Shown: positions 42,927-59,325, counted from the stretch's first letter. The stretch: 64,000 nucleotides of DNA from an uncultured Planctomycetales bacterium (GCA_964474085.1 CAYYRJ010000005.1:23244-87243); one strand, 5' to 3'. Program-made: numbers and translations. The notes: a model not told the origin generated them from the sequence alone.

Positions 42927-43322
42927 GTGGAAAATAAAAAGAAAATATTAATTATTGAAGATGATCTCCAGGTTCTTCGGCTTTGCGATCACATCTTAGC
43001 GCAAGAAGGTTTTGAAATTGTTAAGGCGAGCTCTGGGGCCGAGGCTTTGAAAAAGATTCAAGAGCAGCGTCCGGATCTTTTGATTGTTGATTTGATGCTT
43101 CCTGATATGAATGGGGCCGAAATTATCCAGGAAGCCAAAACAAAATATGCTTGTCAAGCACCAGTGATCTTTTTAACTGGAATGATCACCAAAAAGGAAG
43201 AAGAGGTCAATAATATTACTTTAAAAGTTGAAAATCAGAATTATCCTGCTATCGCCAAGCCGTTTGACCGCAGTCAGCTGATTGACCTTGTTAAAGCCCA
43301 GTTTCAGAAAAAAAGCAAATAA
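42927..43322 (+). CDS. single-domain response regulator (REC)
   Basis: GTG start 6 nt after AAAGGAG; KILIIEDD...LLIVDLMLPDMNG...AKP. Confidence 0.75.
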   Translation: MENKKKILIIEDDLQVLRLCDHILAQEGFEIVKASSGAEALKKIQEQRPDLLIVDLMLPDMNGAEIIQEAKTKYACQAPVIFLTGMITKKEEEVNNITLKVENQNYPAIAKPFDRSQLIDLVKAQFQKKSK

Positions 43323-44251: not shown

Positions 44252-44824
44252 ATGAAAAAAGAACTTTTGACAACCGGAGAAGTTGCTCAATACTGCCACG
44301 TGACCTATCGTGCTGTATTAAAGTGGATAGTAGAGGGCAAGCTTAAAGCCTACCGCACACCGGGTCAGCATAGCCGTGTCGCCATCAATGATTTCCTCGA
44401 TTTTTTAGAAAAATTCCATATGCCCATTCCTGCGGGCCTCGAACGAACAACACAAAAGAATAAAATTTTGATTGTTGACGATGACCAAAAAATCGCTCAT
44501 TTGGTCCGTGCCGCGCTTGAAGTCGACAGCCGTTATCAGCTCGATGTTGCTTACGACGGTTTTAGTGCCGGCCAAAAATTTTCTGCGTTTCGTCCGGATC
44601 TTGTCGTTTTGGATATTATGATGCCCGGCCTTAACGGGTATGAAGTTTGTGCGAATATCCGAAAAGATCCTGCCAATAAAGACGTTAAGATCATTGCGGT
44701 GTCCGGTTCATTTGCTGTCGAGGGAGAAGAGAAGATTTTGAAGGTCGGCGCGAATATGTGCTTGGCCAAACCTTTTGATATTGAGCAGTTAAAAGGCAAG
44801 ATCGAAAAACTTTTGGAAAAATGA
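44252..44824 (+). CDS. response regulator with reversed architecture: N-terminal excisionase/MerR-type HTH, C-terminal REC
   Basis: LTTGEVAQYCHVTYRAVLKWI HTH_17-like segment, then KILIVDDDQ...LVVLDIMMPGLNG...AKP receiver. Confidence 0.7.
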   Translation: MKKELLTTGEVAQYCHVTYRAVLKWIVEGKLKAYRTPGQHSRVAINDFLDFLEKFHMPIPAGLERTTQKNKILIVDDDQKIAHLVRAALEVDSRYQLDVAYDGFSAGQKFSAFRPDLVVLDIMMPGLNGYEVCANIRKDPANKDVKIIAVSGSFAVEGEEKILKVGANMCLAKPFDIEQLKGKIEKLLEK

Positions 44825-45573
44825 TGGATCATGCTCCGACTATTCTGATTATCGATGATGATGTTCATCTCGCAGGTTTAATGAAACGTCAGCTTGAAGA
44901 TACCGGATATGACGTCGTTGTCGCCTCTAACGGGAAAGAAGGGCTAGAGAAGTTAAAAACCATCATCCCGTCTTTGATTATTCTTGATATTAATATGCCG
45001 CAGATGAATGGTCTGGAATTTTTTCGGCACATTATGGCCGATGGTCAGCATTCTTTGTATCCTGTCCTTGTTTTGACTAGCCGCATCGAATTCGAAAATA
45101 TTTTTAAGGATGTCAACGCCGCCGGGTTTATCCCGAAGCCTTTTCTTATCAATCATTTGATCGAGGAAGTCCACCGGATTATTGCTCTTGCCCCACGCCC
45201 AATCGTATTTCTCATTGACCATTCTGCCTCAGAAACAGTGCGTCAGCTTACCAAAATTCTCATCAAAAAAAACTATGATGTTATTGGAGTAAACAGCTCG
45301 ACGGAGTTTGAAAGAATTACGCAACGGCGCAAACCCCGCTTTATTCTTTTAGAATGCGGCCAAAGTGATGGCGCCGGGGAAGAAATAATAAAAAAAATAA
45401 AAAGTTATCGGGATTTAAGTCAAGTTCCTGTTGTGGCCTATACTTACACGGTTGGAAAAAACGTGCCGATGAGCAGTTATCAGGCTGGGATCAATCAAAT
45501 TTTGCAAAATCCGCAAGACGTTGAATCGTTTCTTGCCGTGATCAAGGACATTGAATCAACGGATAAAGGATAA
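44821..45573 (+). CDS. tandem receiver protein: REC plus degenerate pseudo-receiver
   Basis: First domain has the canonical DDD...LDINMP...PKP motifs. The second is receiver-like (IVFLIDHS...FILLECG) but has Glu at the phospho-acceptor position. Confidence 0.6.
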   Translation: MMDHAPTILIIDDDVHLAGLMKRQLEDTGYDVVVASNGKEGLEKLKTIIPSLIILDINMPQMNGLEFFRHIMADGQHSLYPVLVLTSRIEFENIFKDVNAAGFIPKPFLINHLIEEVHRIIALAPRPIVFLIDHSASETVRQLTKILIKKNYDVIGVNSSTEFERITQRRKPRFILLECGQSDGAGEEIIKKIKSYRDLSQVPVVAYTYTVGKNVPMSSYQAGINQILQNPQDVESFLAVIKDIESTDKG

Positions 45574-45582
45574 ATTTCGCGT

Positions 45583-47298
45583 ATGCCAACATACATCCGC
45601 AAAAGGTTCGGCGAAAGATTAGTGGAAGAAGGGCTAATTACCGCCGAGCAATTTGAGTTGGCCTTAAAAAAACACAAGGAAACCAAGGTCCTTTTGCGCC
45701 AGATTTTAGTCGACTTAGGGTTTATCAGTGAAGATAAACTCCTGGAGTTTACAGCGAAAGTCATGGGAATCCCGGTTGTCAAAGATCTCTTAAACAAGAT
45801 CACCGACCCGCAGATTGTCAAAATTGTCCCCGAAAAAACCTGTCGCCAGAATTTTGTTTTGCCTCTTTATAAAACCGCAAACGTTTTGACTATCGCGATG
45901 TTCGATCCGTTTGATGTTTTTGTTTTAGATGATCTGCAGGCGCTGACAAAATGCAAAATTGAATCGGTGTTGAGTAAAAAAGAAGATATTTTAAAGACCT
46001 TAAGTATTTTTTATGAGGAAAAAGAAAACATCGAGGAGATTGTTAAGGGCATGACTCAGGAAGCCGAAGAGCTTGAGATCATTCGAGAAACCCGCGAAGA
46101 AGAAAATGAAAAAATTGATGCTCAGGCGGTCGATGCGCCGATTATTCGCTTGGTCAATACGATTATCACACAGGCGATCAAGCAGCGGGCCAGCGATATT
46201 CACGTCGAGCCGGATGAAAAGGGTTTACGCATCCGTTATCGGATTGACGGGATATTGCGCGAAACGATGTCGCCGCCCAAACGGCTTCAGGCTCCGATTA
46301 TTTCACGCATTAAGATTATGGCGGAGATGGATATTTCCATCAAACGTCAGGCGCAGGATGGCCGTTTTAAAATCCGCGTTGAAAACAAAAATATCGATGT
46401 GCGCATTTCCTCCGTTCCGACGATTTATGGCGAAAAACTGGTCATGCGTCTGTTGGATAAATCATTTATTCAGATGGGCCTTATGGATTGCGGCCTAAGC
46501 AAAAGCTGTCTGGAGCGTTTTAGTGAACTGATCAATCGTCCTTACGGCATTATTTTGGTTACGGGCCCCACCGGAAGCGGCAAAACAACGACGCTTTATC
46601 TGGCTTTGCAAACGCTCAATTCCCCCGACAAAAACATTATCACCATTGAAGAGCCTGTCGAATATGACCTTGAGGGGGTCAATCAGATCCCTGTCAACAG
46701 CAAGGCGGGGATTACCTTTGCTAAGGGGTTGCGTTCGATTTTGCGGCAAGACCCGGATGTGATCATGGTCGGTGAGATGCGCGATTTGGAAACAGCGGAT
46801 GTTGCGGTACGTGCCGCTTTGACGGGACATTTGGTATTTAGCACTTTGCACACCAATGATGCTTGTAGCTCGATTATACGGTTAATTGACATGGGGATCG
46901 CTTCTTATCTTGTAACCTCGTCGATCTGTTGTGTTTTGGCGCAACGTTTGGTGCGTACGATTTGCGATAAATGTAAAGAAGCTTATACGCCCAGTCAAGA
47001 ACAGTTGGATTCTGCGGGGATCAAAGCTTCTGTGTCAGAAGTGACATTTTATCGTGGAAAAGGTTGCGAAGATTGCGGGCAGACGGGTTTTCGCGGGCGC
47101 ACAGGTCTTTTTGAACTGATGGTCGTCGACAAAAAGTTGCGGCAACTGATTCATGAGGGACAGTCGGTCGATGCTCTGCGCAGTGCATCGCAAAAGTCAG
47201 GGATGAAATTTTTGTGGGATGACGGGTTAGAAAAAGTGCTACAAGGACAGACAACGATCGAGGAACTCAAGCGGGTTACTTTCTTGGAGGGGGAATAA
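45583..47298 (+). CDS. pilB: type II secretion/type IV pilus assembly ATPase (GspE/PilB)
   Basis: N-terminal GspE_N domain, Walker A GPTGSGKTT, Asp/His boxes, tetracysteine CxxC...CxxC motif. Confidence 0.9.
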   Translation: MPTYIRKRFGERLVEEGLITAEQFELALKKHKETKVLLRQILVDLGFISEDKLLEFTAKVMGIPVVKDLLNKITDPQIVKIVPEKTCRQNFVLPLYKTANVLTIAMFDPFDVFVLDDLQALTKCKIESVLSKKEDILKTLSIFYEEKENIEEIVKGMTQEAEELEIIRETREEENEKIDAQAVDAPIIRLVNTIITQAIKQRASDIHVEPDEKGLRIRYRIDGILRETMSPPKRLQAPIISRIKIMAEMDISIKRQAQDGRFKIRVENKNIDVRISSVPTIYGEKLVMRLLDKSFIQMGLMDCGLSKSCLERFSELINRPYGIILVTGPTGSGKTTTLYLALQTLNSPDKNIITIEEPVEYDLEGVNQIPVNSKAGITFAKGLRSILRQDPDVIMVGEMRDLETADVAVRAALTGHLVFSTLHTNDACSSIIRLIDMGIASYLVTSSICCVLAQRLVRTICDKCKEAYTPSQEQLDSAGIKASVSEVTFYRGKGCEDCGQTGFRGRTGLFELMVVDKKLRQLIHEGQSVDALRSASQKSGMKFLWDDGLEKVLQGQTTIEELKRVTFLEGE

Positions 47299-47304
47299 TA
47301 TTTT

Positions 47305-48522
47305 ATGCCGATGTATTCTTACAAAGTGCGAGATAAAGCTGCAACAATTCACAACGGCCAGATGGAAGCCGCTGATGAACGTGATTTGCGCCGTAAGCTC
47401 GACGAGCGGGAATATTTTATTATTGACTATAGCCGGCTTACGAGTAAAAAAGAGTTTTTGTTTAAATCGATTTCTTTTGGTTTGGGGCATGCCAGTTATA
47501 CAGATTTAGCGCTTATCAGCTGGCAGTTTTTTACGTTGTTAAATGCTGGCCTGACATTGAGTAACAGTTTAACGATCATCATCAACCAGACAAAAAACGA
47601 AGTTTTAAAAACAGCTTTAAGCCGGGTTTATAGCCGTGTTGAAGCAGGTTCGACGTTTTCTGATGCCCTTAAAGAAAGCCCGAAAGTTTTTTCAAGGTTT
47701 TATGTGCAGATGGTCAATGCTGGCGAGGTTGGCGGAGTTTTAGACGAAATGTTAAAAAGGCTGGCCATCTATTATGAACGTCAAGCTGAAATCAGTTCCA
47801 AAATAAAATCTGCAATGATTTATCCAGCGCTGCTATTGACAGTCTCTTGTGCCGTTATCATGTTTTTGGTGATGTTTGTTCTGCCTCAGTTCTCCAGCAT
47901 TTTTAAGGAAATAGGGGTGAGCCTGCCTGTGCCCACACAGATGCTTTTGAGTTTTAGCGCGATGTTAAGGACATATTGGTTGATATTTATCGGCGCAGCA
48001 CTTGGATTGTGCACTTTGGGGTGGGTCGTTGTTAACACGGATCAGGGCGGGTATCAATTTGATCTGTTGAAATTAAAGCTTCCTGTCATCGGGGGGTTGA
48101 TTAACAAATCCGTGACGGTTCAGTTTACGCAAACGTTGTCGACCTTAGTCAGTGCTGGAATCCCGATTCTTTCGGCTTTGGATGTCGTCACAGATACCAT
48201 TGGCAATAAAGCTATTGTCAAAGTGCTCAAAAAAGTTTCTTCGTTTGTTGAACAAGGCAAACCGATCGCCCAGCCTTTGGAAGAAAGCCGGATGTTTCCT
48301 GACATGCTGATTAACATGATTCGTGTCGGCGAGGAAACCGGCTCCTTGAGCAACATGCTCGATAAAATCGGCGAATTTTATTTCAAGGATGTTAATAATG
48401 CTGTCGAATATTTTACAAAAATGATTGAGCCGACCTTGATGGTGATTATGGCTGGAATTATTGGCTTTATTACAACATCGATTTTTTTGCCCTTGTCGAG
48501 TTTGCTGCAAACGATTCGTTGA
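47305..48522 (+). CDS. pilC: type II secretion/type IV pilus platform protein (GspF/PilC)
   Basis: Two T2SSF repeats; about 400 aa; 3 TM segments. Confidence 0.9.
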   Translation: MPMYSYKVRDKAATIHNGQMEAADERDLRRKLDEREYFIIDYSRLTSKKEFLFKSISFGLGHASYTDLALISWQFFTLLNAGLTLSNSLTIIINQTKNEVLKTALSRVYSRVEAGSTFSDALKESPKVFSRFYVQMVNAGEVGGVLDEMLKRLAIYYERQAEISSKIKSAMIYPALLLTVSCAVIMFLVMFVLPQFSSIFKEIGVSLPVPTQMLLSFSAMLRTYWLIFIGAALGLCTLGWVVVNTDQGGYQFDLLKLKLPVIGGLINKSVTVQFTQTLSTLVSAGIPILSALDVVTDTIGNKAIVKVLKKVSSFVEQGKPIAQPLEESRMFPDMLINMIRVGEETGSLSNMLDKIGEFYFKDVNNAVEYFTKMIEPTLMVIMAGIIGFITTSIFLPLSSLLQTIR

Positions 48523-48544
48523 CGATAAAGAAAGGCTTTAGCCG

Positions 48545-48949
48545 ATGTCAGTGATGAAAAAAGGATATACGCTGATGGAAGTCATCATGGTTGTCTTTAT
48601 CGTCGGGCTTTTGTCTTCTCTGGTTGTCATGCGGTATGATTCGCAGAGAAAAAGAACCGCGATCAATGTGACTAAAGCAAACTTAGAAAGTATCCGCACG
48701 GCGATAGCTTTTTATTATGAGGTTGAAGGCACATGGCCTGTCGGCAACTTATCTGAACTTTATCTAGGGACAGCCCCTAGCGGTAAAATATATTTGGGCA
48801 AGCTGCCTTCCGAAGAGATCACCCACAAAAATTCGGTTACCAATGTTTCGACGAATACGGGCGGATGGTTTTATGATTTACCGACGCATACGATTATTCC
48901 AAACTTGACGGGAACAGATGCCACGGGTGTTCTTTATTCGACATATTAA
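48545..48949 (+). CDS. prepilin-type pseudopilin (GspG-like major subunit)
   Basis: KKGYTLMEVIMVVFIVGLL N-terminal methylation motif (G/YTLME) and hydrophobic helix. Confidence 0.7.
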   Translation: MSVMKKGYTLMEVIMVVFIVGLLSSLVVMRYDSQRKRTAINVTKANLESIRTAIAFYYEVEGTWPVGNLSELYLGTAPSGKIYLGKLPSEEITHKNSVTNVSTNTGGWFYDLPTHTIIPNLTGTDATGVLYSTY

Positions 48950-49010
48950 ACGTGAGGTGCAAGTCGGTAAAAAAAATTTGCACACGGCGTTATGAAGTGG
49001 GGATTTTAAA

Positions 49011-49466
49011 ATGAAGGTTTCTAAAGGGTACACTTTACTGGAAATGGCGATGGTCTTAGGCATCCTTGCCATAGGGATGATGATCATTATCCCCAAAATG
49101 GTCAGCCTAATGAATGTTTGGGATTTGGATATTGAAATTAATAAACTCAAAGCCAAAATCAGGCAAGCGCAGAATTTGGCGATTGCCAAACAGGCTACTT
49201 ATCGGATGACTTGGGATATTCCGGGTAAGGTTTATACGCTCAAGAAGTTCGATGGGGTCAGTTTTGTTCTTCAGGAAACCAATGGATATCAAAACAATGT
49301 TAGTGTAATAAATACGACATTTATCATTAACCCAGGGTCGGTGGATTTTGATCAATTTGGATCTCCGTCGGAAGCTGGAATGATTATGTTGCGGCATGAA
49401 AAAACGATGGCTTCAAAATATATCCAAATTTCGGCTGTCACTGGGCAATTATCGGTGTTCCCATGA
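49011..49466 (+). CDS. prepilin-type minor pseudopilin (GspH-like)
   Basis: SKGYTLLEMAMVLGIL N-terminal motif. Confidence 0.65.
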   Translation: MKVSKGYTLLEMAMVLGILAIGMMIIIPKMVSLMNVWDLDIEINKLKAKIRQAQNLAIAKQATYRMTWDIPGKVYTLKKFDGVSFVLQETNGYQNNVSVINTTFIINPGSVDFDQFGSPSEAGMIMLRHEKTMASKYIQISAVTGQLSVFP

Positions 49467-49840
49467 AAAAGAAACAGAAAGGTTTTAGTTTAATCGAGCT
49501 TCTTGCCGCGGTTGTTGTCACAGGCGTGATGGCGGTATCGATTATGAATCTGTATTCTTTTGGAGGACAGATGAATTTTCTTGTTGAGGAAGATTTAGCT
49601 GTTACCAATCTGCTTCAATATAAGATCGAAGAGATCCGCTGTCAGCCTTTTACAAAAAATATCACTGTGACAGATCAGGTAATTACAGGCTTTGGGAAAT
49701 ATAAATTGAGTGCGACCCAAACGGTGCCGTATTTGGGTAATCCGTATTTAAAGAAGGTGCACGTCAGCTGTATTTATCCGTCGGGTGTGGGGGTTAATAA
49801 GACAGAACAGATTGATTTTTTGGTTGGGGACAAACAATAA
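49463..49840 (+). CDS. prepilin-type minor pseudopilin (GspI-like)
   Basis: QKGFSLIELLAAVVV N-terminal motif; start overlaps the upstream stop. Confidence 0.65.
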   Translation: MKKKQKGFSLIELLAAVVVTGVMAVSIMNLYSFGGQMNFLVEEDLAVTNLLQYKIEEIRCQPFTKNITVTDQVITGFGKYKLSATQTVPYLGNPYLKKVHVSCIYPSGVGVNKTEQIDFLVGDKQ

Positions 49841-49855
49841 GAAAGGCCCAAAGAA

Positions 49856-50410
49856 GTGACTCGGGTGCGTAATATCAAAGGATTTACTCTTTTGGAAGCC
49901 ACTTTGGCCGTTGCGATCAGCGCCCTTCTGTTAGGTTCGCTTTTGCTAGTTTTCAAAGTGGGAAAATCAAGCTGGAATGTCAGTAATCAGCAAAGCGAAC
50001 TTTTGCAACATGCACGGACGGCTATGGCGCGTTTAAGTTCGGAATTGCGTTATGCGACAGGTTTAACGCAGGCCAATTTGCTTGGTGTTGAGTTTACAAC
50101 CAAGGTTTTGGTCGATTCGGATAATACGACGACAGAAACGATCCGTTATGAAGTTGTCGGTAATACGATTCAACGTTCTGTCAACGCTGGGACAAAGCAA
50201 ATTGTGGCAGGCGATGCTTTGGCTGGCGGGGTTATTGCAAAATTTTATAGTGTTACTCCAGTCAAGCTTGATGCTGGGTTTAACGTTGCCCCCTTGGATA
50301 CTCTTGACCCGTTGTCCCTAGCTATCGGGCTTAGGGTTGCGATGAGTATGCAGGACACGCATTTAAAGACGGTCGTAGTTTCTACAATGGCGAATTTTAG
50401 GGATAAGTGA
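49856..50410 (+). CDS. prepilin-type minor pseudopilin (GspJ-like)
   Basis: GTG start; IKGFTLLEATLAVAI N-terminal motif. Confidence 0.65.
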   Translation: MTRVRNIKGFTLLEATLAVAISALLLGSLLLVFKVGKSSWNVSNQQSELLQHARTAMARLSSELRYATGLTQANLLGVEFTTKVLVDSDNTTTETIRYEVVGNTIQRSVNAGTKQIVAGDALAGGVIAKFYSVTPVKLDAGFNVAPLDTLDPLSLAIGLRVAMSMQDTHLKTVVVSTMANFRDK

Positions 50411-51585
50411 CGGGACAAATGAAAGAAAAGAAATTTAACCCGGATTTTGCATTAGCCACGCTCCTGCGAGGCCAAGCAAAATCCGCCCAAAGGGCCGCAT
50501 GTCTCGACAAAGTCGAGACGTGTGGGATAAATAACAGGGGAGTCGCTTTTGTTACGGCAATTGTCTTGATGGTTTTATTTTTAAACTTGGGTCTAGGGTA
50601 TTTGATGATGGCCAGAACTCAACTTATGATTGCCCGCAATCAAATCAGTACGCTTAAGGCTTTTTATCATTCAGAAAGTGCACTGCAGCATTCGATCGCT
50701 GAGCTTGTCAACAATGTGGATAAAGATGCCGACGGCTTGGGCAATATTCCTTTGCAGGATTTGGATGGGGATGGAAGTATGGATTATTCGGCAACATATA
50801 ATTCTGCAACAGGAACTGTTTCTTCGACAGGGAACACAGGGACCGACGGGATTGTGCGCACGATTGAAACAAAGATGACGCCTAAAAAGTGGACAGGAGC
50901 GTTTATGGCGGGGCTGAGCATCCCCGCTGTGAGCAATTGTGATTTTAGCACGGTTACAGGCAATGTGTTTGCGCGCAGTGCAATTACACCAAATTTTACG
51001 ACACAGCACACAGTAACTGGTACAGTCACACAAGGCTATGCGTCTTTAGCTATTCCGACAACAATCACAAGCCCGGGTGGGCCATGGTTTAGTTATGCGC
51101 CGGCAGCAAACAGGCATGTCAATTGCCTGTGGGTTACGCCAGCATCCTCGACGATCACAGGGGTGCATTATGTCAATGGAGCTTGCACGATTAATTTGGG
51201 AGGATCAGCGCCTTTGACGATTAATGGATCATTGATCGTCAATGGGAATTTGTCTATTTCTCAAGTGACCAGTTTGATGATAACGCCTGCCGGCAAAGAC
51301 CCGGCCTTGGTTGCCTCAGGAACTTTAAGTTTAGGAAATGTCTCGCCGGGTGTTGTCAATATTCATGGGCTGATTTATGCCGGAGGCAATATATCTTTGA
51401 CGATATGGAATTTTTTCCCGACCCCGAGACATTCGATTAATGGGGCTATTGTTAGTGGGGTAGGGACTATTAGTATGGCTACGATTGCCAGGACGGACTG
51501 GGTGTTTGATTCTTCTTTGAATCCACCATTTTTTACCGGCGGAAGCCCCGGATATTCCGTCGACTATTGGAAGGGACATAAATAA
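50407..51585 (+). CDS. GspK-like minor pseudopilin/pilus tip protein
   Basis: N-terminal RGVAFVTAIVLMVLF...ARTQL hydrophobic segment lacking Glu5, followed by ...YHSESALQHSIAEL, as in GspK; Thr/Gly-rich C-terminal domain with a DGDG motif. Confidence 0.45.
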   Translation: MTGQMKEKKFNPDFALATLLRGQAKSAQRAACLDKVETCGINNRGVAFVTAIVLMVLFLNLGLGYLMMARTQLMIARNQISTLKAFYHSESALQHSIAELVNNVDKDADGLGNIPLQDLDGDGSMDYSATYNSATGTVSSTGNTGTDGIVRTIETKMTPKKWTGAFMAGLSIPAVSNCDFSTVTGNVFARSAITPNFTTQHTVTGTVTQGYASLAIPTTITSPGGPWFSYAPAANRHVNCLWVTPASSTITGVHYVNGACTINLGGSAPLTINGSLIVNGNLSISQVTSLMITPAGKDPALVASGTLSLGNVSPGVVNIHGLIYAGGNISLTIWNFFPTPRHSINGAIVSGVGTISMATIARTDWVFDSSLNPPFFTGGSPGYSVDYWKGHK

Positions 51586-51601
51586 TTTTATAGAGGTTGC
51601 C

Positions 51602-52942
51602 GTGATGGAAAAGACATTAGGACAATATAAGATCGTCCGCGAAATTGCTAAGGGCGGCATGGGCATTATTTACAAGGCTTTAAATCCAGCGACGCAAAAA
51701 ACTGTGGCCATCAAAGTTCTTCCGCCGATGATGGTTGATCGCGTGACGGTTGAGCGGTTTCATCGTGAAGCGCAGGCGATGACCCAGTTAAAACATCCTA
51801 ATATGATTGAAGTTTATGAGTCAGGGATGCAAGAGGGGAAACATTTTCTCGTCATGGAATTTGTTGAAGGCGATAATCTTAAGAATTTGATTACAGCCAA
51901 AGGGCCGCTGCCGATTGAACGCGTCATTAAAATAAGCGTTTGTGTTGCTGATGCGCTAGCGCATATGCATCAGAGGGGAATGATTCATCGCGATATCAAG
52001 CCGGGCAATATTATGATTTTGCCCGACGGACGAGTTAAGTTGATGGATTATGGTTTGGTCAAAATTTTAGGACGCACAAGTGTCACGGTCGAAGGTTCTT
52101 CTTTGGGCACCGCAGAGTATATGTCGCCTGAGCAAATTACAGGGGAAGGGGTAGATAGCCGCACAGATATTTATTCTCTGGGGATTACGATGTATGAAAT
52201 GGTCACCGGCCGTCTTGCTTTTGAAGCCGACACGTTGCAGGAGTTGTTGCACAAACATCAAACACAAGCTGCCTTGGCGATTTCTGCACTTAGGCCGCAA
52301 GTTCCGTTCGAATTAGAATCGATGATCAACAAGGCGATGGCTAAAAATCTTGTGAACCGTTATTCTTGTGCGCAGGATTTAAAAAATGATTTGCAGAAGT
52401 TATCGAAAGAAGATGATCACGCTCAAAGCGCAACTCAAACCGATCTTACCCAAAAGGCACCCATTTTTTCGAGGCCCAACGCTGCTGGCCGGCCCCAAAA
52501 GGCCAAAGGCCTAGCTTGGGGAAAAATGTTTGCCCTTGTGGTTTGCGCAGCACTTATTTATTTTTATCGGGACAAGGCGACCGACATTTTTAAAAAAGTG
52601 CCGTGGAATAAATTTGCCGTAACGGTTGGGCAAAGGGATTTGGTAAAAGAAACGAATATTACCTTAACACTTCTAGAACAGGCCCAAGCGCATTTTGATC
52701 AGGGACAATCTTTTGCTCGTCAGGGATTGTCCGATGAAGCGATTTCTGAGATTCAAAAGGCCCTGCAATTAAGAGCGGATGAGCCGGTGTATTACAAACA
52801 ATTAGCTTTAATTTATGAAAAGAAAAATGATTACAAAAAGGCTATAAAGGCTTGGAAAGATTTATTAAAATACGAAAACGATGCGGCCCAAATCAAAATC
52901 GCACAGCAGCATATTGAACAATTAACAGCGACTAAGAATTAA
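51602..52942 (+). CDS. Hanks-type Ser/Thr protein kinase with C-terminal TM helix and TPR domain
   Basis: GxGxxG (AKGGMGIIY), VAIK, HRDIKPGNIM, DYG, TAEYMSPE motifs; TM around residue 300; TPR-like C-terminus. Confidence 0.85.
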   Translation: MMEKTLGQYKIVREIAKGGMGIIYKALNPATQKTVAIKVLPPMMVDRVTVERFHREAQAMTQLKHPNMIEVYESGMQEGKHFLVMEFVEGDNLKNLITAKGPLPIERVIKISVCVADALAHMHQRGMIHRDIKPGNIMILPDGRVKLMDYGLVKILGRTSVTVEGSSLGTAEYMSPEQITGEGVDSRTDIYSLGITMYEMVTGRLAFEADTLQELLHKHQTQAALAISALRPQVPFELESMINKAMAKNLVNRYSCAQDLKNDLQKLSKEDDHAQSATQTDLTQKAPIFSRPNAAGRPQKAKGLAWGKMFALVVCAALIYFYRDKATDIFKKVPWNKFAVTVGQRDLVKETNITLTLLEQAQAHFDQGQSFARQGLSDEAISEIQKALQLRADEPVYYKQLALIYEKKNDYKKAIKAWKDLLKYENDAAQIKIAQQHIEQLTATKN

Positions 52943-52978
52943 GGTTGAGTTTCATCTATCAACAGGTCAAATGGATCT

Positions 52979-54667
52979 ATGCCAAAGTTATTGATAAAAA
53001 ATGGGGAACGAAAAGGTTCTGTGATCCGGGTTGGTGATCAAAAATTAGAGCTTGGTCGCGATCCGTCTAACACGGTTGTGATTCCTGACAGGCGTGTTTC
53101 TCGACGGCATGCATCGATTTTTTCTCAAGCTGGGGAGTGGTGGATTGAAGACTTGGGGTCTGTCAACGGCACGTTTGTCAACGGCCAGACCGTGCGTAAA
53201 GGGAAGTTGCAATTTTGCGATCAAATCATGTTGGGGGCAACGGTCATTGAATTTTTGCAACTCAACGCACCCGAAGATCGCCAAACGGACGGATTGACTC
53301 AGGTGCGGTTGCTTTCAGCGCAGGAGAATGTGTCTAAAAGCAATGTGGTGATGTCGCTTTCAACTGCGTCGGGCAGTTTTGAAAAAAAAGATTTTCCCGC
53401 CGATCCAAAATCTTTGTTGGAATTATACCAGAGGTTATTGACGGTTTATCGGATCAGCCTTGATTTGGGTGTTGTTGTCGACCTTAAAAAACTTTCGTTT
53501 CGGATATTGGAATCTGTTTTAAATGTGATTAAAGCGGACCGTGGATTTATTATGTTGAAAGATGAGGAAACTCAGCAACTGATTCTACAAGCTGTTTATC
53601 GAAGGCCGGGAGTTGATGAAAGCGAAGAGATTTCTTTGTCACAAACCATTGCCCAACAAGTTATGCACAGCGGCGAATCGCTTTTGATTTCGGATGCGGG
53701 GTTAGATGAGCGTTTTAAACAAGCACAGAGCATTGTCATCCAGGGGATCCGCTCAACGATGTGTGTTCCCATAAAAATCAAGGATCGGATTTTAGGAATT
53801 CTCTACGTCGACACAAAAGGCAAGGTCGCCAGCTTTGTTCGCGAAGATCTTGAAATGCTAACCGCGATTTCTCATCAGGCGGCGGTGGCTATCGAAAATT
53901 CGCAGCTGTTTGACAATTTGCATAAAGTCAATGAGGAGCTCAAACAACAGCAAGCCCAATTGATTGAGTCCGAAAAATTATCCGCCTTAGGCCAATTAGC
54001 CGGCGGGGTTGCGCATGAGATCAATAATCCGATGACGAGTATTTTGGGATATTCGCAGTTGATTGTTGGACAGCTGGGGAAAGAGAACTTGGATGCACAC
54101 AAAATAAAAGAATGTGCCGAATTTGCGGGTATTGTCGAGAGTGAAGCCCATCGTTGCCAGGCGATCGTTCAAACTCTTTTGCAATTTGGCCGCCGTAAAA
54201 AAGAAGAAATGGTGGCGATGGATGTCAATAAGGCCATTGAAGCAGCTCTTCTGATTGCGAAATTTCACATTAAAAAAACGCACATTGAAATCAAACAGCA
54301 ATTGTCGTCTGGCTTGCCGGCGATTATGGCTGATGCCAATCAATTGCAGCAGGTTTTTTTGAATTTGATTATTAATGCACGCGATGCGATGGAAAAAAAT
54401 GGAGGAACGTTACTTATCAGCTCGTGCGACTCAGCAGAAGGTCACGTGATTGTCAAGTTTGCGGATACCGGGTGTGGTATTCCGGAGGATAAATTAGATG
54501 AGATTTTTAAGCCTTTGTACACGACTAAAGAAGAAGGCAAAGGGACTGGTTTAGGATTATCGATTACTCAAGACATTCTTGAACTTCATAAAGCAAAGAT
54601 TGAAGTTGAAAGCACCGTCGGAAAAGGAACGACTTTTACAATACGTTTCCCGGTGATAGGCGGATAA
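52979..54667 (+). CDS. FHA-GAF sensor histidine kinase
   Basis: N-terminal FHA (LGRDPSNTVVIPDRRVSRRHASI...GSVNGTFVNG), central GAF, H-box GVAHEINNPM, HATPase_c N/G boxes; no TM. Confidence 0.8.
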   Translation: MPKLLIKNGERKGSVIRVGDQKLELGRDPSNTVVIPDRRVSRRHASIFSQAGEWWIEDLGSVNGTFVNGQTVRKGKLQFCDQIMLGATVIEFLQLNAPEDRQTDGLTQVRLLSAQENVSKSNVVMSLSTASGSFEKKDFPADPKSLLELYQRLLTVYRISLDLGVVVDLKKLSFRILESVLNVIKADRGFIMLKDEETQQLILQAVYRRPGVDESEEISLSQTIAQQVMHSGESLLISDAGLDERFKQAQSIVIQGIRSTMCVPIKIKDRILGILYVDTKGKVASFVREDLEMLTAISHQAAVAIENSQLFDNLHKVNEELKQQQAQLIESEKLSALGQLAGGVAHEINNPMTSILGYSQLIVGQLGKENLDAHKIKECAEFAGIVESEAHRCQAIVQTLLQFGRRKKEEMVAMDVNKAIEAALLIAKFHIKKTHIEIKQQLSSGLPAIMADANQLQQVFLNLIINARDAMEKNGGTLLISSCDSAEGHVIVKFADTGCGIPEDKLDEIFKPLYTTKEEGKGTGLGLSITQDILELHKAKIEVESTVGKGTTFTIRFPVIGG

Positions 54668-54694
54668 ATTTTTCAACAAACCATTTGAGGCCAA

Positions 54695-55816
54695 ATGACG
54701 GAATCTCAGTTTTTTAAGAAAATCGCGCAGGGCTTAATGACTCCGGTTAAATTTCAGGGCGGGGATTTCCTGGAGAATATGTTAGAAAAAGGCGTGCGCG
54801 TTGTTGTCGATATTGGATCAAGTTCGATAAAGATCATCGAAGTTCAGGCAACATCAAATGGCCCTCTCGTCAGAACTGTGGCTTATCGTGAATTCCCACG
54901 TTCTCTTGACTCTAAGGGGTCTATGCCAGCGCAGGCGCTTATTGAGCAAACTTTGGTTGATTTATGGCGCAGTCATAAGATACGGCCGGGCGATGTGCGT
55001 TTGATTATTTCTGATCCGGCGGTGTATTTGCGGTATTTGACGATTCCGCGGATTGAGGAGCAGGAATTACAAAAAGCCTTGCGATGGCAAATTGAAAAAT
55101 ATGTGCCGTTTGCGATTGAAGAGGCCAGCATTGATTATCAGATCGTCGATCATGAAGGCCTAAAAGATAAAACTCAAATGCGGATTATTGTTGTTGCGGT
55201 CGAACGAAAGGTCATTGATAAATATTTGGGGATTTTAAAGGCCGTTAAGGTCGTTCCAACGGTCATTGATATTGCGGCGTTTTCTGCGGCGAAAGCGGTT
55301 ATGAAAATGAGCCCTGCCAATTCGCAGCAAACAGTTTTAGTCGTCGATATCGGGGCGCATACGATATCGATGGTCGTTTTTAAAGCCCGTGTGCTTTTGA
55401 TGGTTCGCAGTATTGAAAATGCCGGCGATCAGATGACGCGCATGATCAGCGAAACCTGCACAGTCGACATCATGACGGCCGAAGATTTAAAGCGTCAGGC
55501 CGTTCTTTTTTTCGATGAGAAATCAGCTTCTTCTCATAATAAAGTGTTAGCTGTTATGCAAACAATTTGTCAACAGTGGGCCCAAGAGATTGATCGTTCA
55601 TTGACGTACTGTGAACGGGAAGGACTCGCAGAGACAATCGACAAAATTATTCTTTGCGGGGGCTCGGCCAAACTTAAAGGCCTTGATCAATTTGTTGCCA
55701 GCCAGTTGGGGTTGCCTGTTGAAGTTGTTAATGTTGCCAAACACATCCCTTGCGAACAACTCGACGCTCAAGGGTTGGCGACAGAGTTTTTGGCCGCTTA
55801 TGGCGGGTTGTATTAA
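54695..55816 (+). CDS. pilM: type IV pilus assembly protein PilM (actin-like ATPase fold)
   Basis: VVDIGSSSIKIIEV N-terminal actin-like motif, about 370 aa; immediately followed by pilN/pilO-like genes. Confidence 0.75.
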   Translation: MTESQFFKKIAQGLMTPVKFQGGDFLENMLEKGVRVVVDIGSSSIKIIEVQATSNGPLVRTVAYREFPRSLDSKGSMPAQALIEQTLVDLWRSHKIRPGDVRLIISDPAVYLRYLTIPRIEEQELQKALRWQIEKYVPFAIEEASIDYQIVDHEGLKDKTQMRIIVVAVERKVIDKYLGILKAVKVVPTVIDIAAFSAAKAVMKMSPANSQQTVLVVDIGAHTISMVVFKARVLLMVRSIENAGDQMTRMISETCTVDIMTAEDLKRQAVLFFDEKSASSHNKVLAVMQTICQQWAQEIDRSLTYCEREGLAETIDKIILCGGSAKLKGLDQFVASQLGLPVEVVNVAKHIPCEQLDAQGLATEFLAAYGGLY

Positions 55817-55839
55817 ACATTTCTCCAAGAGGAGTTTTT

Positions 55840-56376
55840 GTGCGACAGATTAATTTATTGCCCGAATCTTTGCAGCAGGCGCAAAATAAAAAGAAAATTT
55901 TAAATTCTTTTTTTGTCACATTGATTCCGACGGTATTCGCGGTTGGAGCCATTCATGTTTTGACGATATTGTTTATTGCGAATTTAGAAGGCCAGGTCAA
56001 ACATCCTGCCGCGAATATGGACACTATGGAATTTATGGCCTTGCGGGAAGAAATCCAGAAAAAATCAGAGGATGTCCAAAAATATACACAGCAGTATGGG
56101 GCACTTATCAACAGTTATATGGACAATTTTTTATCCCAGGATATTTTAAAAGCTCTCGGAGCTATCAGCCATCATAAAGTTTGGTTTACGCGTTTTGAAT
56201 TGAATAATAAAAATCGGGCATGTGAAATTCAGGGCAAGTCTTTTAATACGCGCTTAGTCAGCGAGTTTATGTTAGGGGTCAAGAAAGCGCCTTTTTTTGA
56301 TAATGTGACATTGATTTCAATGGAAAAAGGGCAGGATGAGAAGGTCAATTTTAAGATCGTCTGTGTGCTTAAGTAA
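55840..56376 (+). CDS. pilN: type IV pilus assembly protein PilN
   Basis: GTG start 5 nt after AAGAGGAG; N-terminal RQINLLPE PilN motif, single TM. Confidence 0.65.
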   Translation: MRQINLLPESLQQAQNKKKILNSFFVTLIPTVFAVGAIHVLTILFIANLEGQVKHPAANMDTMEFMALREEIQKKSEDVQKYTQQYGALINSYMDNFLSQDILKALGAISHHKVWFTRFELNNKNRACEIQGKSFNTRLVSEFMLGVKKAPFFDNVTLISMEKGQDEKVNFKIVCVLK

Positions 56377-56413
56377 CCGGTTTTAGAGGCTGTTTGCGGG
56401 AGATTGTCGTCGG

Positions 56414-56989
56414 ATGGATATTGATATCAAAAAAATTTATAAGATCGAGTTTTGGCTGGTTGCCATTATTCTTTGTGCTTTTTTTGTTTTGGATATTTAT
56501 CCTCAAGCGATTCGTATTTTTTCACTCTTGCAGACGATAGATGTCTCCCGGAAAACGGCCTTGGCTTTGCCGCCGCAAGAAAAGGAAAGAATTCGTCAGG
56601 AATTATTAAACGATAAAAAAAGACTCGACGAATCTGACGGGGCGATGCGCGGGATTGTCAGCAGTATCGAGCAAAAGATATCCGGTGAAAAGAGCATTCC
56701 TAACATTACTTTGAAATTAGAAGAATTGTCAACCGGTTGCGGGATTGATTTATTGAGCATCAAGCCATCGGCGTTAATCTCGGAGGGCGGCTATGATGCA
56801 TTTACCATTGACCTGGAGTTTGAAAGTGAATATGGACAGTTGATTAATTTTTTGTCGCTCTGGGCGCAGACACCGTTTTATTTAACAGTTGAACAGGTGA
56901 CTGTTTCTAAATCCAAAGAGACATCTTTAAAACTGGATGTCAATCTTAAACTCAAGGTGCTTTTTAAGCAGGAACCCAAAACTTTGTAA
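56414..56989 (+). CDS. pilO: type IV pilus assembly protein PilO-like
   Basis: Single TM, coiled-coil segment, PilO-like C-terminal domain; position after pilN. Confidence 0.5.
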   Translation: MDIDIKKIYKIEFWLVAIILCAFFVLDIYPQAIRIFSLLQTIDVSRKTALALPPQEKERIRQELLNDKKRLDESDGAMRGIVSSIEQKISGEKSIPNITLKLEELSTGCGIDLLSIKPSALISEGGYDAFTIDLEFESEYGQLINFLSLWAQTPFYLTVEQVTVSKSKETSLKLDVNLKLKVLFKQEPKTL

Positions 56990-57010
56990 GATTTAAAAGG
57001 CGTACGGATC

Positions 57011-57487
57011 ATGAGCCAACGTGAAAAATTTATAGGGATTATTTTATTGGCCCTTGCTGTTTTGTGTGTGGTTGTGTTTAGCTCGCGACATTTTCCCGTT
57101 TCAGTTCCCGACGGAAAAACAGTTCAAGAGATTAAGAATGGCGTTACTGCGACAAAAACGCCGGCGCAGGATTCCAAAGACGATTTTAAGCGAATGGTCG
57201 ACAAAGTTATGCTTCAAAATCAGCCTAAGCAAGCAAGCGAACCGGTCGACCCTTTTAGAAAATTTGAACTCCGGGATCTTATGGAGGGTAATATTTTAGA
57301 ATTCTCTGAGCTGAAATTAATTGGGATTGTGATGGATGAGGAAATCACAGCGGCCTTGATCAATGATGAAATTTTGTATGTTGGTGATGAGATATCCGGG
57401 TTTAAAGTCACAGAAATTCTTGCGAATGAAGTTTTTTTAACCCGGGGGCTTGAAAAATATACTTTGAAGCTATTTGAAGAACAGTGA
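57011..57487 (+). CDS. PilP/GspC-like pilus assembly lipoprotein-like protein
   Basis: N-terminal TM/signal; C-terminal beta domain (FKVTEILANEVFL) resembling PilP; position after pilO. Confidence 0.4.
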   Translation: MSQREKFIGIILLALAVLCVVVFSSRHFPVSVPDGKTVQEIKNGVTATKTPAQDSKDDFKRMVDKVMLQNQPKQASEPVDPFRKFELRDLMEGNILEFSELKLIGIVMDEEITAALINDEILYVGDEISGFKVTEILANEVFLTRGLEKYTLKLFEEQ

Positions 57488-57533
57488 CACAAAGAACGGA
57501 TGTTGCACAAATGTTCAAGGAGGTCGACGAGAA

Positions 57534-57911
57534 ATGTCCCCAATTAAGATTTTAGTGATCGAAGACGATCCGGTTATTATTCATATGAATGAAAGATTGT
57601 TAGGCGAGAAAGGATACCAGGTTATCACCGCCCGTGACGGCTTAGAGGGAATTGACCGAGCCTTGGATGAAAAACCGGATCTTATCCTTTTGGACATCAT
57701 CTTGCCTCGAATGCACGGGTTTGAGGTCTGCAAACTTTTAAAATTAAATCCTGCGACAGGACATATTCCTATCATTTATTTGACGGGGACCGGTTTAGAA
57801 GAGGTGGCTCAAAATGAACCCGAAATTAAAGCCCAGGGGTACATTGCCAAACCGTACGATATTAACGCACTAGATAATCTTATCCAAGAAGTCCTCAAGA
57901 AAAACCATTGA
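57534..57911 (+). CDS. single-domain response regulator (REC)
   Basis: ATG after AAGGAGG; KILVIEDDP...LILLDIILPRMHGF...AKP. Confidence 0.8.
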   Translation: MSPIKILVIEDDPVIIHMNERLLGEKGYQVITARDGLEGIDRALDEKPDLILLDIILPRMHGFEVCKLLKLNPATGHIPIIYLTGTGLEEVAQNEPEIKAQGYIAKPYDINALDNLIQEVLKKNH

Positions 57912-57935
57912 GGACTATATTAAGGAGATCCCGCC

Positions 57936-58505
57936 ATGGGACAACACGAAAAAGCGAGCAAGCGTCAATTAAAGATTCTTGTTATCGAGGATGATCCGAC
58001 GATCATTAAAATATATGAACGGATATTATCCAATGACGGCCATCGGGTTGTTAGCGCACTGACTGGAGCGCAGGCGGTCGCTAAACTTAAGGATGAATCT
58101 TTTGATTTGGTTTGTTTGGATTTAAAACTTCCGGATATGGACGGGATGGATTTATTAAAATTGATCAAAAGAAAAGTCGAGTGGATTCCGGTTATTATCG
58201 TGACCGCTAATCCTTCTTTGGAATCTTCCCTTGAGGCTTTAAATGCGGGAATTGTCACCGAATATATCACAAAACCGTTTGATACCAAGGAGCTTGTGAT
58301 AACTATTCGCCAGTCCGTCGAGAAAGCAAAACTTCTTTTAGATAATAAGAGATTATTAAAACGACTTGAAAATACAAACAAGGCCCTGACGGAGCGCGTT
58401 GAGCAGCTTGAAGAATTTGCGAAAGATTCTGTGAAGTTGCAGAGGCGGATCACAGAATTAAATGCGTATGTCGAGTCTTTGGGCAAAAAGTTTCCCGGCG
58501 CTTAA
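57936..58505 (+). CDS. response regulator: REC with C-terminal coiled-coil extension
   Basis: KILVIEDDP...LVCLDLKLPDMDG...TKP receiver, then about 60 aa of heptad-rich sequence. Confidence 0.75.
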   Translation: MGQHEKASKRQLKILVIEDDPTIIKIYERILSNDGHRVVSALTGAQAVAKLKDESFDLVCLDLKLPDMDGMDLLKLIKRKVEWIPVIIVTANPSLESSLEALNAGIVTEYITKPFDTKELVITIRQSVEKAKLLLDNKRLLKRLENTNKALTERVEQLEEFAKDSVKLQRRITELNAYVESLGKKFPGA

Positions 58506-58560
58506 GCTGGTGTCGTTTTGTTTATAAAAATGTTTTAGGATAATCACAAGGACGTTTAAG

Positions 58561-59325
58561 GTGAAAATAGGTTTATTTTCAGATATTCACAGTAATCGCG
58601 AAGCTTTCGAAAGCGTTTTAAGCGCTTTAAAACAGGCCAAGGTTGACCGGTATATTTTTTTGGGAGATCTTGTCGGCTATGGCGCCAGTCCACGTGAATG
58701 TATTGAAATGTTAAAAAGATTAATCGACGAGAAAGGGTGTTTATGCATCGCCGGAAACCATGATTATGCCGTTTGCGGGTTAACAGTGTATGAACATTAT
58801 GCTTTAAATGCCAAGACGTCGATTGAGTGGACAAAAAAGCAGCTTAACTCTCAGGAGTTAAAGTTTTTGGCGGATTTGCCCTTGGTGGGCGATTCACGTC
58901 ATTCTTTTGGGGGAGACGAATTTTTGGAACAATTTACGATCGTCCACGCGAATTTGTTATCGCCAAAAGATTGGCGGTATATCTGGGATATTGATGATGC
59001 TTTTGAGAGTTTTCAAATACTTCAACATCGGCTGTGTTTCGTCGGGCACTCGCATAAACCGCTTGTTTTTACGTGCGGATCGATTGTCGATTGGTTTATC
59101 CGCGACCAGATCCCTTTAAAGAAAGATTTGAAATATATTATAAATGTCGGCAGCGTCGGACAGCCCAGAGACGGTAATCCGAAAGCTTGCTATGCGATTT
59201 ATGATACCCAAACGGATCTTGTGACGATTGAACGTATCGATTATGATATTCCAACGGCCCAAGCTAAAATTATTTCTGCTGGCCTTCCCAAACTTCTTGC
59301 CGACCGTCTAGCGACGGGAAAGTGA
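58561..59325 (+). CDS. calcineurin-like metallophosphoesterase
   Basis: GTG start; SDIH, GDLVGYG, GNHD and GHSH motifs. Confidence 0.8.
   Translation: MKIGLFSDIHSNREAFESVLSALKQAKVDRYIFLGDLVGYGASPRECIEMLKRLIDEKGCLCIAGNHDYAVCGLTVYEHYALNAKTSIEWTKKQLNSQELKFLADLPLVGDSRHSFGGDEFLEQFTIVHANLLSPKDWRYIWDIDDAFESFQILQHRLCFVGHSHKPLVFTCGSIVDWFIRDQIPLKKDLKYIINVGSVGQPRDGNPKACYAIYDTQTDLVTIERIDYDIPTAQAKIISAGLPKLLADRLATGK

Follow-up and report, generated by a model that had tools for sequence, protein, structure and literature searches.

A Hanks-type Ser/Thr kinase and an FHA-GAF histidine kinase form a conserved pair in an Omnitrophota pilus locus and may act as a split sensor kinase

We analyzed two adjacent kinase genes at 51602-54667 of a 64,000-nucleotide stretch of DNA (GCA_964474085.1, CAYYRJ010000005.1:23244-87243; hereafter the window, from whose first letter all positions are counted). 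The pair is located between a pseudopilin block on its 5' side and pilMNO on its 3' side, within a tightly packed cluster of genes on one strand. The first gene encodes a Hanks-type Ser/Thr kinase (STPK) with a transmembrane (TM) segment and a TPR domain, and the second encodes a soluble histidine kinase (HK) that joins an FHA domain to GAF, HisKA, and HATPase_c domains (hereafter FHA-HK). Rather than being a chance insertion, the pair belongs ancestrally to one Omnitrophota pilus-locus type and is inherited together with it. From the sequences, we propose with a probability of roughly one in two that the two proteins constitute a split transmembrane sensor kinase built into this type IV filament machine.

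51602-52942, plus strand: STPK gene, 446 amino acids counted from GTG 51602
51626-52384, within the STPK gene: kinase domain
52076-52087, within the STPK gene: activation-loop Thr159/Thr162
about 52508-52567, within the STPK gene: single TM segment
about 52676-52879, within the STPK gene: TPR domain (periplasmic)
52979-54667, plus strand: FHA-HK gene (FHA-GAF-HisKA-HATPase_c), 562 amino acids, soluble
53051-53236, within the FHA-HK gene: FHA domain
53480-53893, within the FHA-HK gene: GAF domain
53987-54199, within the FHA-HK gene: HisKA domain, with His346 at 54014-54016
54332-54655, within the FHA-HK gene: HATPase_c domain

A first-pass annotation of the window had described both open reading frames, the intact motifs, TM segment and TPR of the STPK, the domain order and solubility of the HK, and the pilus genes on either side; Pfam searches and hydropathy bore out each of these points, as well as the gap of 36 nucleotides between the STPK stop (ending at 52942) and the FHA-HK ATG (52979). 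The domain E-values of both proteins are far beyond chance. In the STPK, ATG 51605 is a more likely start than GTG 51602, given an AGAGG Shine-Dalgarno-like sequence upstream; our residue numbers are counted from the GTG and would each be one lower from the ATG. Pkinase (Pfam PF00069) matched residues 9-261 with E = 5.7e-54 (183.7 bits against a cutoff of 31.7), and residues 359-426 matched TPR_2 (E = 1.1e-8) and TPR_16 (E = 2.1e-6). The translation contains every motif expected of a Hanks-type kinase, namely the GGMG loop, VAIK, E56, HRDIKPGN, DYG (which stands for DFG in this protein), and SPE, and among solved structures the kinase domain is closest to StkP and PknB (E = 1e-50 to 1e-54). 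The PASTA-kinase family model (NF033483, PknB/Stk1) gave 325.8 bits against a cutoff of 450, its match was confined to the kinase domain (residues 7-290), and the extracytoplasmic part is TPR, not PASTA. There is a single hydrophobic segment at about residues 303-321 (KD19 = 1.82), and the TPR domain must be extracytoplasmic, provided that the kinase domain faces ATP. K38, E56, HRD, N136, D149, T159, T162, and SPE are invariant across 9-10 orthologs, in which the TM segment also stays in place. Apart from T159 and T162 in the activation loop, only T170 and S175 in the P+1 region are invariant among the Ser/Thr residues, and column conservation is 0.58 in the TPR region versus 0.32 in the linker.

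The FHA-HK displayed equally clear domain matches: FHA over residues 25-86 (E = 5.2e-19, 68.9 bits against a cutoff of 20.7), GAF over residues 168-305 (E = 3.7e-18), HisKA over residues 337-407 (E = 1.7e-11, 44.4 bits), and HATPase_c over residues 452-559 (E = 5.5e-26, 91.6 bits). No TM segment was found (maximum KD19 = 1.17), and Pfam detected neither a PAS nor a REC domain in the protein. The sequence carries the GR...SRRH...NGT signature of FHA domains and a HEINNP H-box. Among about 122 homologs, the phosphothreonine-contact residues G26, R27, S41, H44, N63, and N68 are essentially invariant, and the nearest solved relatives of the domain are the phosphothreonine readers GarA and OdhI (E = 2e-11), with the archaellum regulator ArnA (5a8i, E = 2.9e-9) also among the closest. 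By its residues, then, the domain classifies as a phosphothreonine reader and is predicted to bind such a ligand. The H-box His346 is present in 122/122 homologs and N462/N466, D496-G500, F510, and G522-G526 are invariant, as in HisKA-type sensor kinases; the best NCBIfam neighbors of the core, AtoS and ZraS, are NtrB-type. Two more specific models did not recognize the protein at their own thresholds: the EspA equivalog model (NF052573) gave 169.3 bits in two stretches against a cutoff of 1400, and T2SS_HK (NF038348) gave 159.9 bits in two stretches against 450, with its best stretch covering only the catalytic core (residues 390-559).

The linker between FHA and GAF in this HK family contains a T-V-E-[M/L/I] motif, whose Thr is present in 105 of 122 members (30/44 in clade A and 75/78 in clade B of the tree described below). 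The motif fits the pT-x-x-hydrophobic pattern that FHA ligands show and is a candidate phospho-acceptor and FHA ligand. In GarA and OdhI, a kinase-phosphorylated Thr in the protein's own flexible segment binds back to the FHA domain; the self-binding Thr of these actinobacterial proteins is the point of likeness to the HK family, although their output is inhibition of metabolic enzymes and not control of a kinase core. Unlike them, the window HK has no linker Thr: residues 122-125 (53342-53353) read N-V-V-M, as in its closest relatives P0001-P0004, and on this alignment the Thr is lost in the sublineage of the window HK, with Asn in its place. A universal phospho-switch at this position is thereby ruled out for the window HK. 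In the GAF domain, Cys262 (53762-53764, motif M-C-V-P-I) is present in 44/44 members of clade A and 66/78 of clade B, the remainder having Ser, and may be a ligand- or redox-sensing residue.

To place the pair in context, we compared 14 related loci, the named ones being from Omnitrophota: five seeded with the HK (L001, L002, L004, L084, and L098) and nine (L088-L096) from an independent scan seeded with PilM that returned ten metagenome loci, nine of them with DNA upstream of pilM. The first-pass annotation had named absence of the pair from orthologous pilus loci as the sign of a chance insertion. Instead, the FHA-HK lies directly 5' of pilM in all 14 loci and the TPR-STPK directly 5' of the FHA-HK in all nine with enough DNA; the PilM-seeded subset contributed 9/9 and 4/4 to these counts. 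In the HK-seeded loci (44-58% identity), the order is STPK(TPR)-FHA-HK-PilM-PilN-PilO-PilP-like; wherever the DNA reaches far enough, PilB, PilC, and pilins lie upstream, and downstream there are usually REC genes and a metallophosphoesterase gene. Across ten loci, pairwise identities span 40-78% for the STPK and 40-85% for the HK, and the two sets correlate with r = 0.85 (45 pairs). This fixed position, retained in 14/14 loci with HKs down to 40% identity, and the co-divergence of the two kinases argue for a functional linkage of the pair to the pilus. A PilM profile search gave 398 bits or more for the PilMs it retrieved from this locus type and 253 or less for every other PilM. Homologs of the FHA-HK are numerous, and the named full-length ones are from Candidatus Omnitrophica/Omnitrophota. 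The wording of the first-pass annotation, in which the pair was "inserted" among the pilus genes, is misleading: the pair is an ancestral part of the locus and occupies the slot held by a PilS/PilR-like pair in canonical type IVa pilus (T4aP) loci.

The cluster around the pair spans 44252-59325, entirely on the plus strand, with intergenic gaps of at most about 60 nucleotides or overlaps. Besides the two kinase genes, it comprises the following features.

44252-44824, plus strand: HTH_17-REC response regulator (Response_reg E = 6e-26, HTH_17 E = 7.4e-9)
44821-45573, plus strand: tandem receiver directly 5' of pilB (Response_reg E = 1.6e-32, two stretches)
45583-47298, plus strand: PilB/GspE-type assembly ATPase (T2SSE E = 1.1e-138, MshEN E = 4.3e-15)
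47305-48522, plus strand: PilC/GspF platform protein (T2SSF E = 4.3e-64)
48545-48949, 49011-49466, 49463-49840, and 49856-50410, plus strand: four prepilin-type (pseudo)pilins (N_methyl matches)
50407-51585, plus strand: PilX/GspK-like protein, 392 amino acids, N-terminal hydrophobic helix
54695-55816, plus strand: PilM, actin-like cytoplasmic platform protein (PilM_2 E = 9.9e-42; TIGR01175 166.7 bits, cutoff 133)
55750-56376, plus strand: PilN (E = 1.1e-9), true start probably past the pilM stop
56414-56989, plus strand: PilO (E = 2.7e-5)
57011-57487, plus strand: PilP/GspC-like protein, 158 amino acids, one TM segment (weak GspC_delta, E = 3.4e-4, and CdsD_C)
57474-57911, plus strand: REC1, single-domain receiver (Response_reg E = 2.4e-23), likely start ATG 57534
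57936-58505, plus strand: REC2, receiver with a C-terminal coiled coil (Response_reg E = 1.6e-27, NtrC/PilR-type)
58561-59325, plus strand: metallophosphoesterase (Metallophos_2 E = 2.6e-19; PDB 3rqz E = 6e-41)

The gaps around the pair are 16, 36, and 27 nucleotides, Shine-Dalgarno-like sequences are present, and GC content (0.44-0.46) shows no difference between the pair and its flanks. Within the cluster, the strongest intergenic plus-strand terminator-like hairpin is at 58496-58515, where REC2 ends, and the cluster shows no strong site of this kind ahead of it. In typing the machine as T4aP or type II secretion system (T2SS), we found that PilM scores above its cutoff, that the PilC/GspF scores are equal, and that PilB falls just below both cutoffs (635.8 versus 675.65 bits for TIGR02538 and 624.5 versus 630.25 for GspE TIGR02533). 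The pilin genes have weak GspG/GspH/ComGD-F matches and the block has G-H-I-J-K-like sizes. The 392-residue open reading frame had no family match, and tblastn found its orthologs (25-34% identity) in most related loci (L001, L002, L004, L090, L092, and L094); the 158-residue PilP/GspC-like protein likewise has orthologs in related loci. Secretin, PilT, and prepilin peptidase (PilD) were not found among the larger open reading frames of the window that were scanned. The machine appears to be a T4aP-like/T2SS-like hybrid type IV filament system. Omnitrophota are T4aP-positive by TXSScan (Seymour et al., PMC10066038). The N-terminus of PilB (45583-45780) matches the MshEN-type cyclic di-GMP (c-di-GMP) motif NF053729 with 53.9 bits against a cutoff of 38, so the machine probably also reads c-di-GMP.

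Receivers flank the locus as had been noted, with starts at 44252, 44821, 57474/57534, and 57936. The cluster contains no second HK and several receivers without enzymatic output. REC1 has intact DD/D/T/K residues and, with orthologs at 37-58% identity, is conserved more widely than any other receiver here. REC2 carries a coiled coil of about 60 residues that contains no His, and its best NCBIfam neighbors are the receivers of NosR, RssB, AtoC, GlrR, NtrX, and LuxO. In the tandem receiver, which has an ortholog in L001 (40% identity), the first REC is intact and the second is degenerate, with Glu for the acceptor Asp and no conserved Lys. The protein at 44252 is the sole DNA-binding receiver of the cluster; a plain REC holds its position in L001, L002, and L084, and the HTH form was seen in the window only. 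In L004 (14687-17723), the REC2 ortholog is a 428-residue REC-HisKA-HATPase_c protein followed by a REC, a PilZ-domain protein, and a TPR/YfiO-like lipoprotein, which suggests a multi-step relay with a c-di-GMP link below the FHA-HK.

Of ten related loci whose DNA extends far enough downstream, eight contain the metallophosphoesterase. Its motifs are SDIHSN, GDLVGYG, and GNHD, compared with GDxHG, GDxVDRG, and GNHE in the PPP family of phosphoprotein phosphatases; motif II lacks its Asp-Arg, and the protein does not classify with that family. Its relatives are 3rqz (uncharacterised) and YfcE/ApaH/SapH types, with PrpA/B matching only at E = 6.5e-4. We accordingly downgraded it as a cognate phosphoserine/phosphothreonine phosphatase, since it lacks PPP motif II and its relatives are uncharacterised or nucleotide hydrolases. 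In L001 (16372-21680), a giant open reading frame of more than 3,700 amino acids starts right after the metallophosphoesterase and runs off the locus, which fits published reports that Omnitrophota giant genes adjoin T2SS-like loci.

A neighbor-joining tree of 122 FHA-GAF-HK homologs resolved two monophyletic groups, clade A (44 members), which includes the window HK and all ten members with pilus-locus context, and clade B (78 members). Two clade B loci, L099 (7112-10010) and L100 (8001-10850), have a PqqD-like and then a ScmC-family gene directly after the HK, with a Wzz/GNVR-AAA_31 protein and an NTP_transf_5 gene nearby, and are a second conserved context of the family that is unrelated to pili; another clade B member has an unrelated 300-residue kinase two genes away. 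As none of the five clade B contexts is a pilus locus, the FHA-GAF-HK architecture is older and broader than its association with pili. Acidobacteriota FHA-GAF-HKs (L005/L006, 29% identity) had no detectable homologs of the window pilus proteins or the STPK within 10 kb. Broader searches were less specific: a contig profile scan with the full-length HK alignment and generic H-box/G2-box patterns gave 80 loci from many phyla, mostly with unrelated HKs and with only one from Omnitrophota (L004), and a protein search for FHA-linker-GAF gave about six full-span representatives among the best 150, the rest being mainly giant multi-GAF proteins.

Pilus loci that lack the pair offer a useful comparison. 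The next-best PilM homologs are canonical 352-residue PilMs in pilMNOPQ operons on the Syntrophaceae-like contigs L101 and L103, where a PAS-HisKA-HATPase_c kinase and an NtrC-type regulator lie directly 5' of pilM and there is no STPK or FHA. The core of the window HK is 32% identical to this PAS-HK, and no window protein matches the PilR-like receiver in these loci better than REC2 (72-84 bits versus 43-53 for REC1). L102 (GCA_042570265.1, 2355-19073) represents a second, distantly related Omnitrophota pilus-locus type with a one-piece membrane dCache-HAMP-HK, a PAS-HK, five single-domain receivers, and a 541-residue PilM-like protein, possibly a PilM-PilN/GspL-like fusion, again with no STPK or FHA. 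An HK with receiver-only proteins inside the pilus cluster thus looks like a recurring theme, of which the window type would be the version with the membrane sensor split in two.

We infer the signal flow, substrates, cognate receiver, and post-translational output of the split sensor kinase as follows. A periplasmic cue, for which a signal from a partner cell, contact with the envelope, and the pilus/pseudopilus machine's own state are candidates, would act on the TPR domain and promote dimerisation of the STPK, which would then autophosphorylate on the two invariant activation-loop threonines, T159 and T162. Docking of the FHA domain on the phosphothreonine of the STPK would place the soluble HK at the membrane, next to PilM/N/O; the FHA domain of most family members may instead or also bind the phosphorylated T-V-E-[M/L/I] linker site in a GarA/OdhI-like intramolecular switch. 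Either event would shift the balance of autokinase and phosphatase activity of the HK, to which the GAF domain may supply a second, cytoplasmic input. That a phosphothreonine signal is passed to His-Asp phosphotransfer, as the first-pass annotation had suggested, is a reasonable reading because the phosphothreonine-binding residues of the FHA domain are invariant. The HK would phosphorylate receivers of the cluster, among which family type points most clearly to REC2 as a candidate, since the HK core is NtrB/AtoS-like and REC2 is NtrC/PilR-like; REC1 and the tandem receiver beside pilB are alternatives. Finally, the receivers would act by protein-protein contact on PilB/PilM to gate assembly, with PilB additionally reading c-di-GMP, and the metallophosphoesterase may reset the system. 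We favor direct action on PilB/PilM over transcription given that the conserved receivers have no DNA-binding output, that the tandem receiver abuts pilB, and that DrdR, described below, provides a precedent. A more far-reaching and tentative version is that, in a large clade of the Omnitrophota, which are ultra-small and probably predatory or parasitic, the pilus/secretion machine proposed to mediate host attachment is gated by an in-operon three-tier relay from the TPR-STPK through phosphothreonine and the FHA/GAF-HK to CheY-like receivers and then PilB/PilM, to which some lineages would add a REC-HK and a PilZ protein.

Several observations count against a split sensor kinase. The juxtamembrane linker of the STPK, a region where FHA domains commonly dock, is variable among orthologs, and the linker-Thr switch cannot be general because the window HK and its closest relatives have Asn at that site. 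The sister clade B yielded 0/5 pilus contexts and has no linked STPK or pilus genes. The receiver set varies: the interval from the PilP-like gene to the phosphoesterase holds no receiver in L098 and one in L094. Among the cluster genes and the larger open reading frames of the window scanned with Pfam, no PP2C phosphatase is present, and the metallophosphoesterase has GDLVGYG in place of the PPP motif II GDxVDRG. The HTH-REC protein makes a transcriptional output possible for the window genome. If the pair did control transcription as PilS/PilR does, sensing envelope or pilin status and setting expression of the pilin and assembly genes through a DNA-binding regulator, this would also fit the canonical T4aP loci with a PilS/PilR-like HK and NtrC-type response regulator at the same position 5' of pilM, the NtrB-type core of the HK, and the PilR-like REC2. 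We consider it rather improbable, as the conserved receivers of this locus type have no DNA-binding or sigma-54 activator domains and the HTH-REC form is absent from L001, L002, and L084.

The STPK might instead phosphorylate the machine itself, with PilM, the N-terminus of PilN, PilC, and PilB as substrates, so that the FHA domain docks the HK on the machine and the HK reports the state of the machine outward. The pair does sit amid structural genes, with pilM next after the HK in all 14 loci, a soluble HK needs some means of localising, and FHA docking on a phosphorylated machine part is known from type VI secretion (T6SS), in which Fha binds phosphothreonine on TssL (PMC3953482). This arrangement is nonetheless unlikely: PilM has no invariant Thr across five orthologs (its invariant residues include S44, S106, and S302), the invariant Thr residues of the STPK lie only in its own activation and P+1 loops, and clade B HKs occur without pilus genes. 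Those unrelated clade B contexts could also mean that the pair merely shares the operon and serves another process, such as general envelope signalling or an anti-phage function like that of PD-T4-6, whose PADLOC models match the STPK kinase domain at E = 3e-88. The match covers only the generic Hanks core (residues 4-290), and we rejected the anti-phage reading on that ground; hitchhiking of any kind is very improbable, because the fixed position in all 14 loci and the co-divergence are hard to explain without functional linkage. We give just as little weight to an FHA domain that works independently of phosphorylation, serving to connect the HK structurally to the inner-membrane platform in the manner of the cytoplasmic FHA-fold domains of YscD/PrgH in type III secretion, with the adjacent STPK irrelevant to it. 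Pfam Yop-YscD_cpl does match residues 8-92 of the FHA-HK (E = 1.2e-14), but R27, S41, H44, and N63 are invariant in the homologs, the closest solved relatives GarA and OdhI are true phosphothreonine readers, and an STPK predicted to be active is always adjacent in clade A.

Each element of the proposed split sensor kinase has a precedent. The T6SS cluster encodes an FHA protein and a membrane-bound Hanks kinase whose sensor domain is periplasmic, and the two act post-translationally (PMC3953482). Like PpkA/Fha/PppA of that system, the window pairs an STPK with an FHA protein inside the cluster of an envelope-spanning machine; unlike it, the machine is a type IV filament system, the sensor is TPR in place of vWA, the FHA domain does not stand alone but is joined to a GAF-HK, there is no PP2C, and the output is probably His-Asp phosphotransfer. 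No T6SS core, vWA, or PP2C domain was found with Pfam in the genes scanned, and the cluster does not qualify as a T6SS threonine-phosphorylation pathway. A parallel to the HK is EspA, a hybrid histidine kinase of Myxococcus xanthus that reportedly carries an FHA domain, fused N-terminally to a HisKA/HATPase_c kinase as in the window HK. EspA works with Hanks kinases, namely the Ser/Thr kinases PktA5/PktB8, and with EspB (PMC4320627). EspA differs in its two PAS domains, where the window HK has GAF, in its C-terminal receiver, in its role in developmental timing via MrpC turnover, and in lying outside a pilus locus, whereas the STPK gene is directly adjacent in the window.

The position of the pair resembles that of PilS-PilR and of the PilS2/PilR2-type pairs beside pilMNOPQ in Deltaproteobacteria, which place an NtrB-type HK inside the pilus cluster; the HK directly 5' of pilM in L101/L103 holds the slot of the window pair, and REC2 resembles the PilR receiver. 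Unlike PilS, which is polytopic, the window HK is soluble and, we propose, FHA-gated, with the STPK supplying the membrane and periplasmic part, and the conserved receivers lack the sigma-54 activator or HTH output of PilR (REC, sigma-54 AAA+, and HTH). Pfam found no Sigma54_activat domain in the cluster, which thus does not conform to a PilS-PilR system. Output-less receivers with direct action on PilB/PilT are known in PilG/PilH (Chp) and DrdR, and in the window the tandem receiver abuts pilB and two single RECs follow pilMNO. DrdR, a tandem-REC protein of Xanthomonas, binds PilB and PilT and raises both ATPase activities (PMC13507683); its degenerate REC is N-terminal, whereas that of the window tandem receiver is C-terminal, and the upstream kinase of Chp is CheA-like, unlike the window HK. 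In archaea, the Sulfolobus archaellum, a machine of the type IV filament superfamily, is regulated by the FHA protein ArnA, ArnB, the kinases ArnC/ArnD, and the phosphatase PP2A (PMC5300886). This Arn network likewise combines Hanks kinases, an FHA protein, and a metallophosphoesterase-family enzyme, but its components lie outside the machine operon, control is reported at the level of archaellum expression, there is no HK, and PP2A is a true PPP enzyme.

The first-pass annotation knew of no such coupling in T2SS or type IV pilus (T4P) machines. That view stands for bacterial T4P/T2SS loci, since in the literature searched we found no description of an STPK/FHA-HK pair in such loci or in papers on Omnitrophota pili and T2SS-like systems; it does not extend to the parts, as FHA-HKs working with STPKs (EspA/PktA5) are known, and so is a machine of the type IV filament superfamily under STPK/FHA control (the Arn network, PMC5300886). 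It is the combination in a bacterial T4P/T2SS locus for which we found no description.

Some further genes of the window lie near the cluster. Directly 3' of it are a GAF-containing PtsP (Enzyme I-Ntr type) gene at 59675-61927 and, at 61924-63687, a gene for a 587-residue protein with C-terminal TPR repeats like those of PilW/Tgl-type pilus lipoproteins; neither follows the metallophosphoesterase in L001, L002, L084, or L098. On the 5' side, a transglutaminase-like (DUF553) gene at 43503-44132 may be part of the conserved neighborhood, as DUF553 is also 5' of REC-pilB in L084. The only large minus-strand gene near the cluster (40299-42782) encodes an 827-residue AsmA/YhdP-like protein that weakly resembles Leptospira-type GspN in its C-terminal part (E = 6.8e-5). 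The region is unusually rich in receivers, with a further stand-alone receiver gene at 42900-43322 and a PAS-PAS-HisKA-HATPase_c-REC hybrid kinase at 20699-22993. GC skew is above 0 in every 2-kb bin of the window (1-64000) and nearly all genes are on the plus strand, which would fit a long segment from a single replichore whose genes strongly favor one strand.

A central role in the attachment of Omnitrophota to other cells, and in their exploitation of these cells, has been proposed for type IV pili and T2SS-like systems (PMC10066038; bioRxiv 10.1101/2023.11.21.568195), and in the literature searched we found no account of how these systems are controlled. If our proposal is correct, Ser/Thr phosphorylation control would be seen for the first time in a type IV filament system of bacteria, and type IV filament machines would join the envelope machines regulated by Thr phosphorylation, among which T6SS and the archaellum of archaea are counted so far. 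The pair would also represent a natural case of a transmembrane sensor HK split into two polypeptides and re-joined by phosphothreonine, and a clean natural coupling of Ser/Thr to His-Asp signalling through an FHA-HK fusion, for which the only precedent is the poorly understood EspA. The organisms that carry the pair are uncultivated, and the conserved in-operon pair provides a concrete signalling hypothesis for the Omnitrophota machines that can be approached with recombinant proteins without cultivation.

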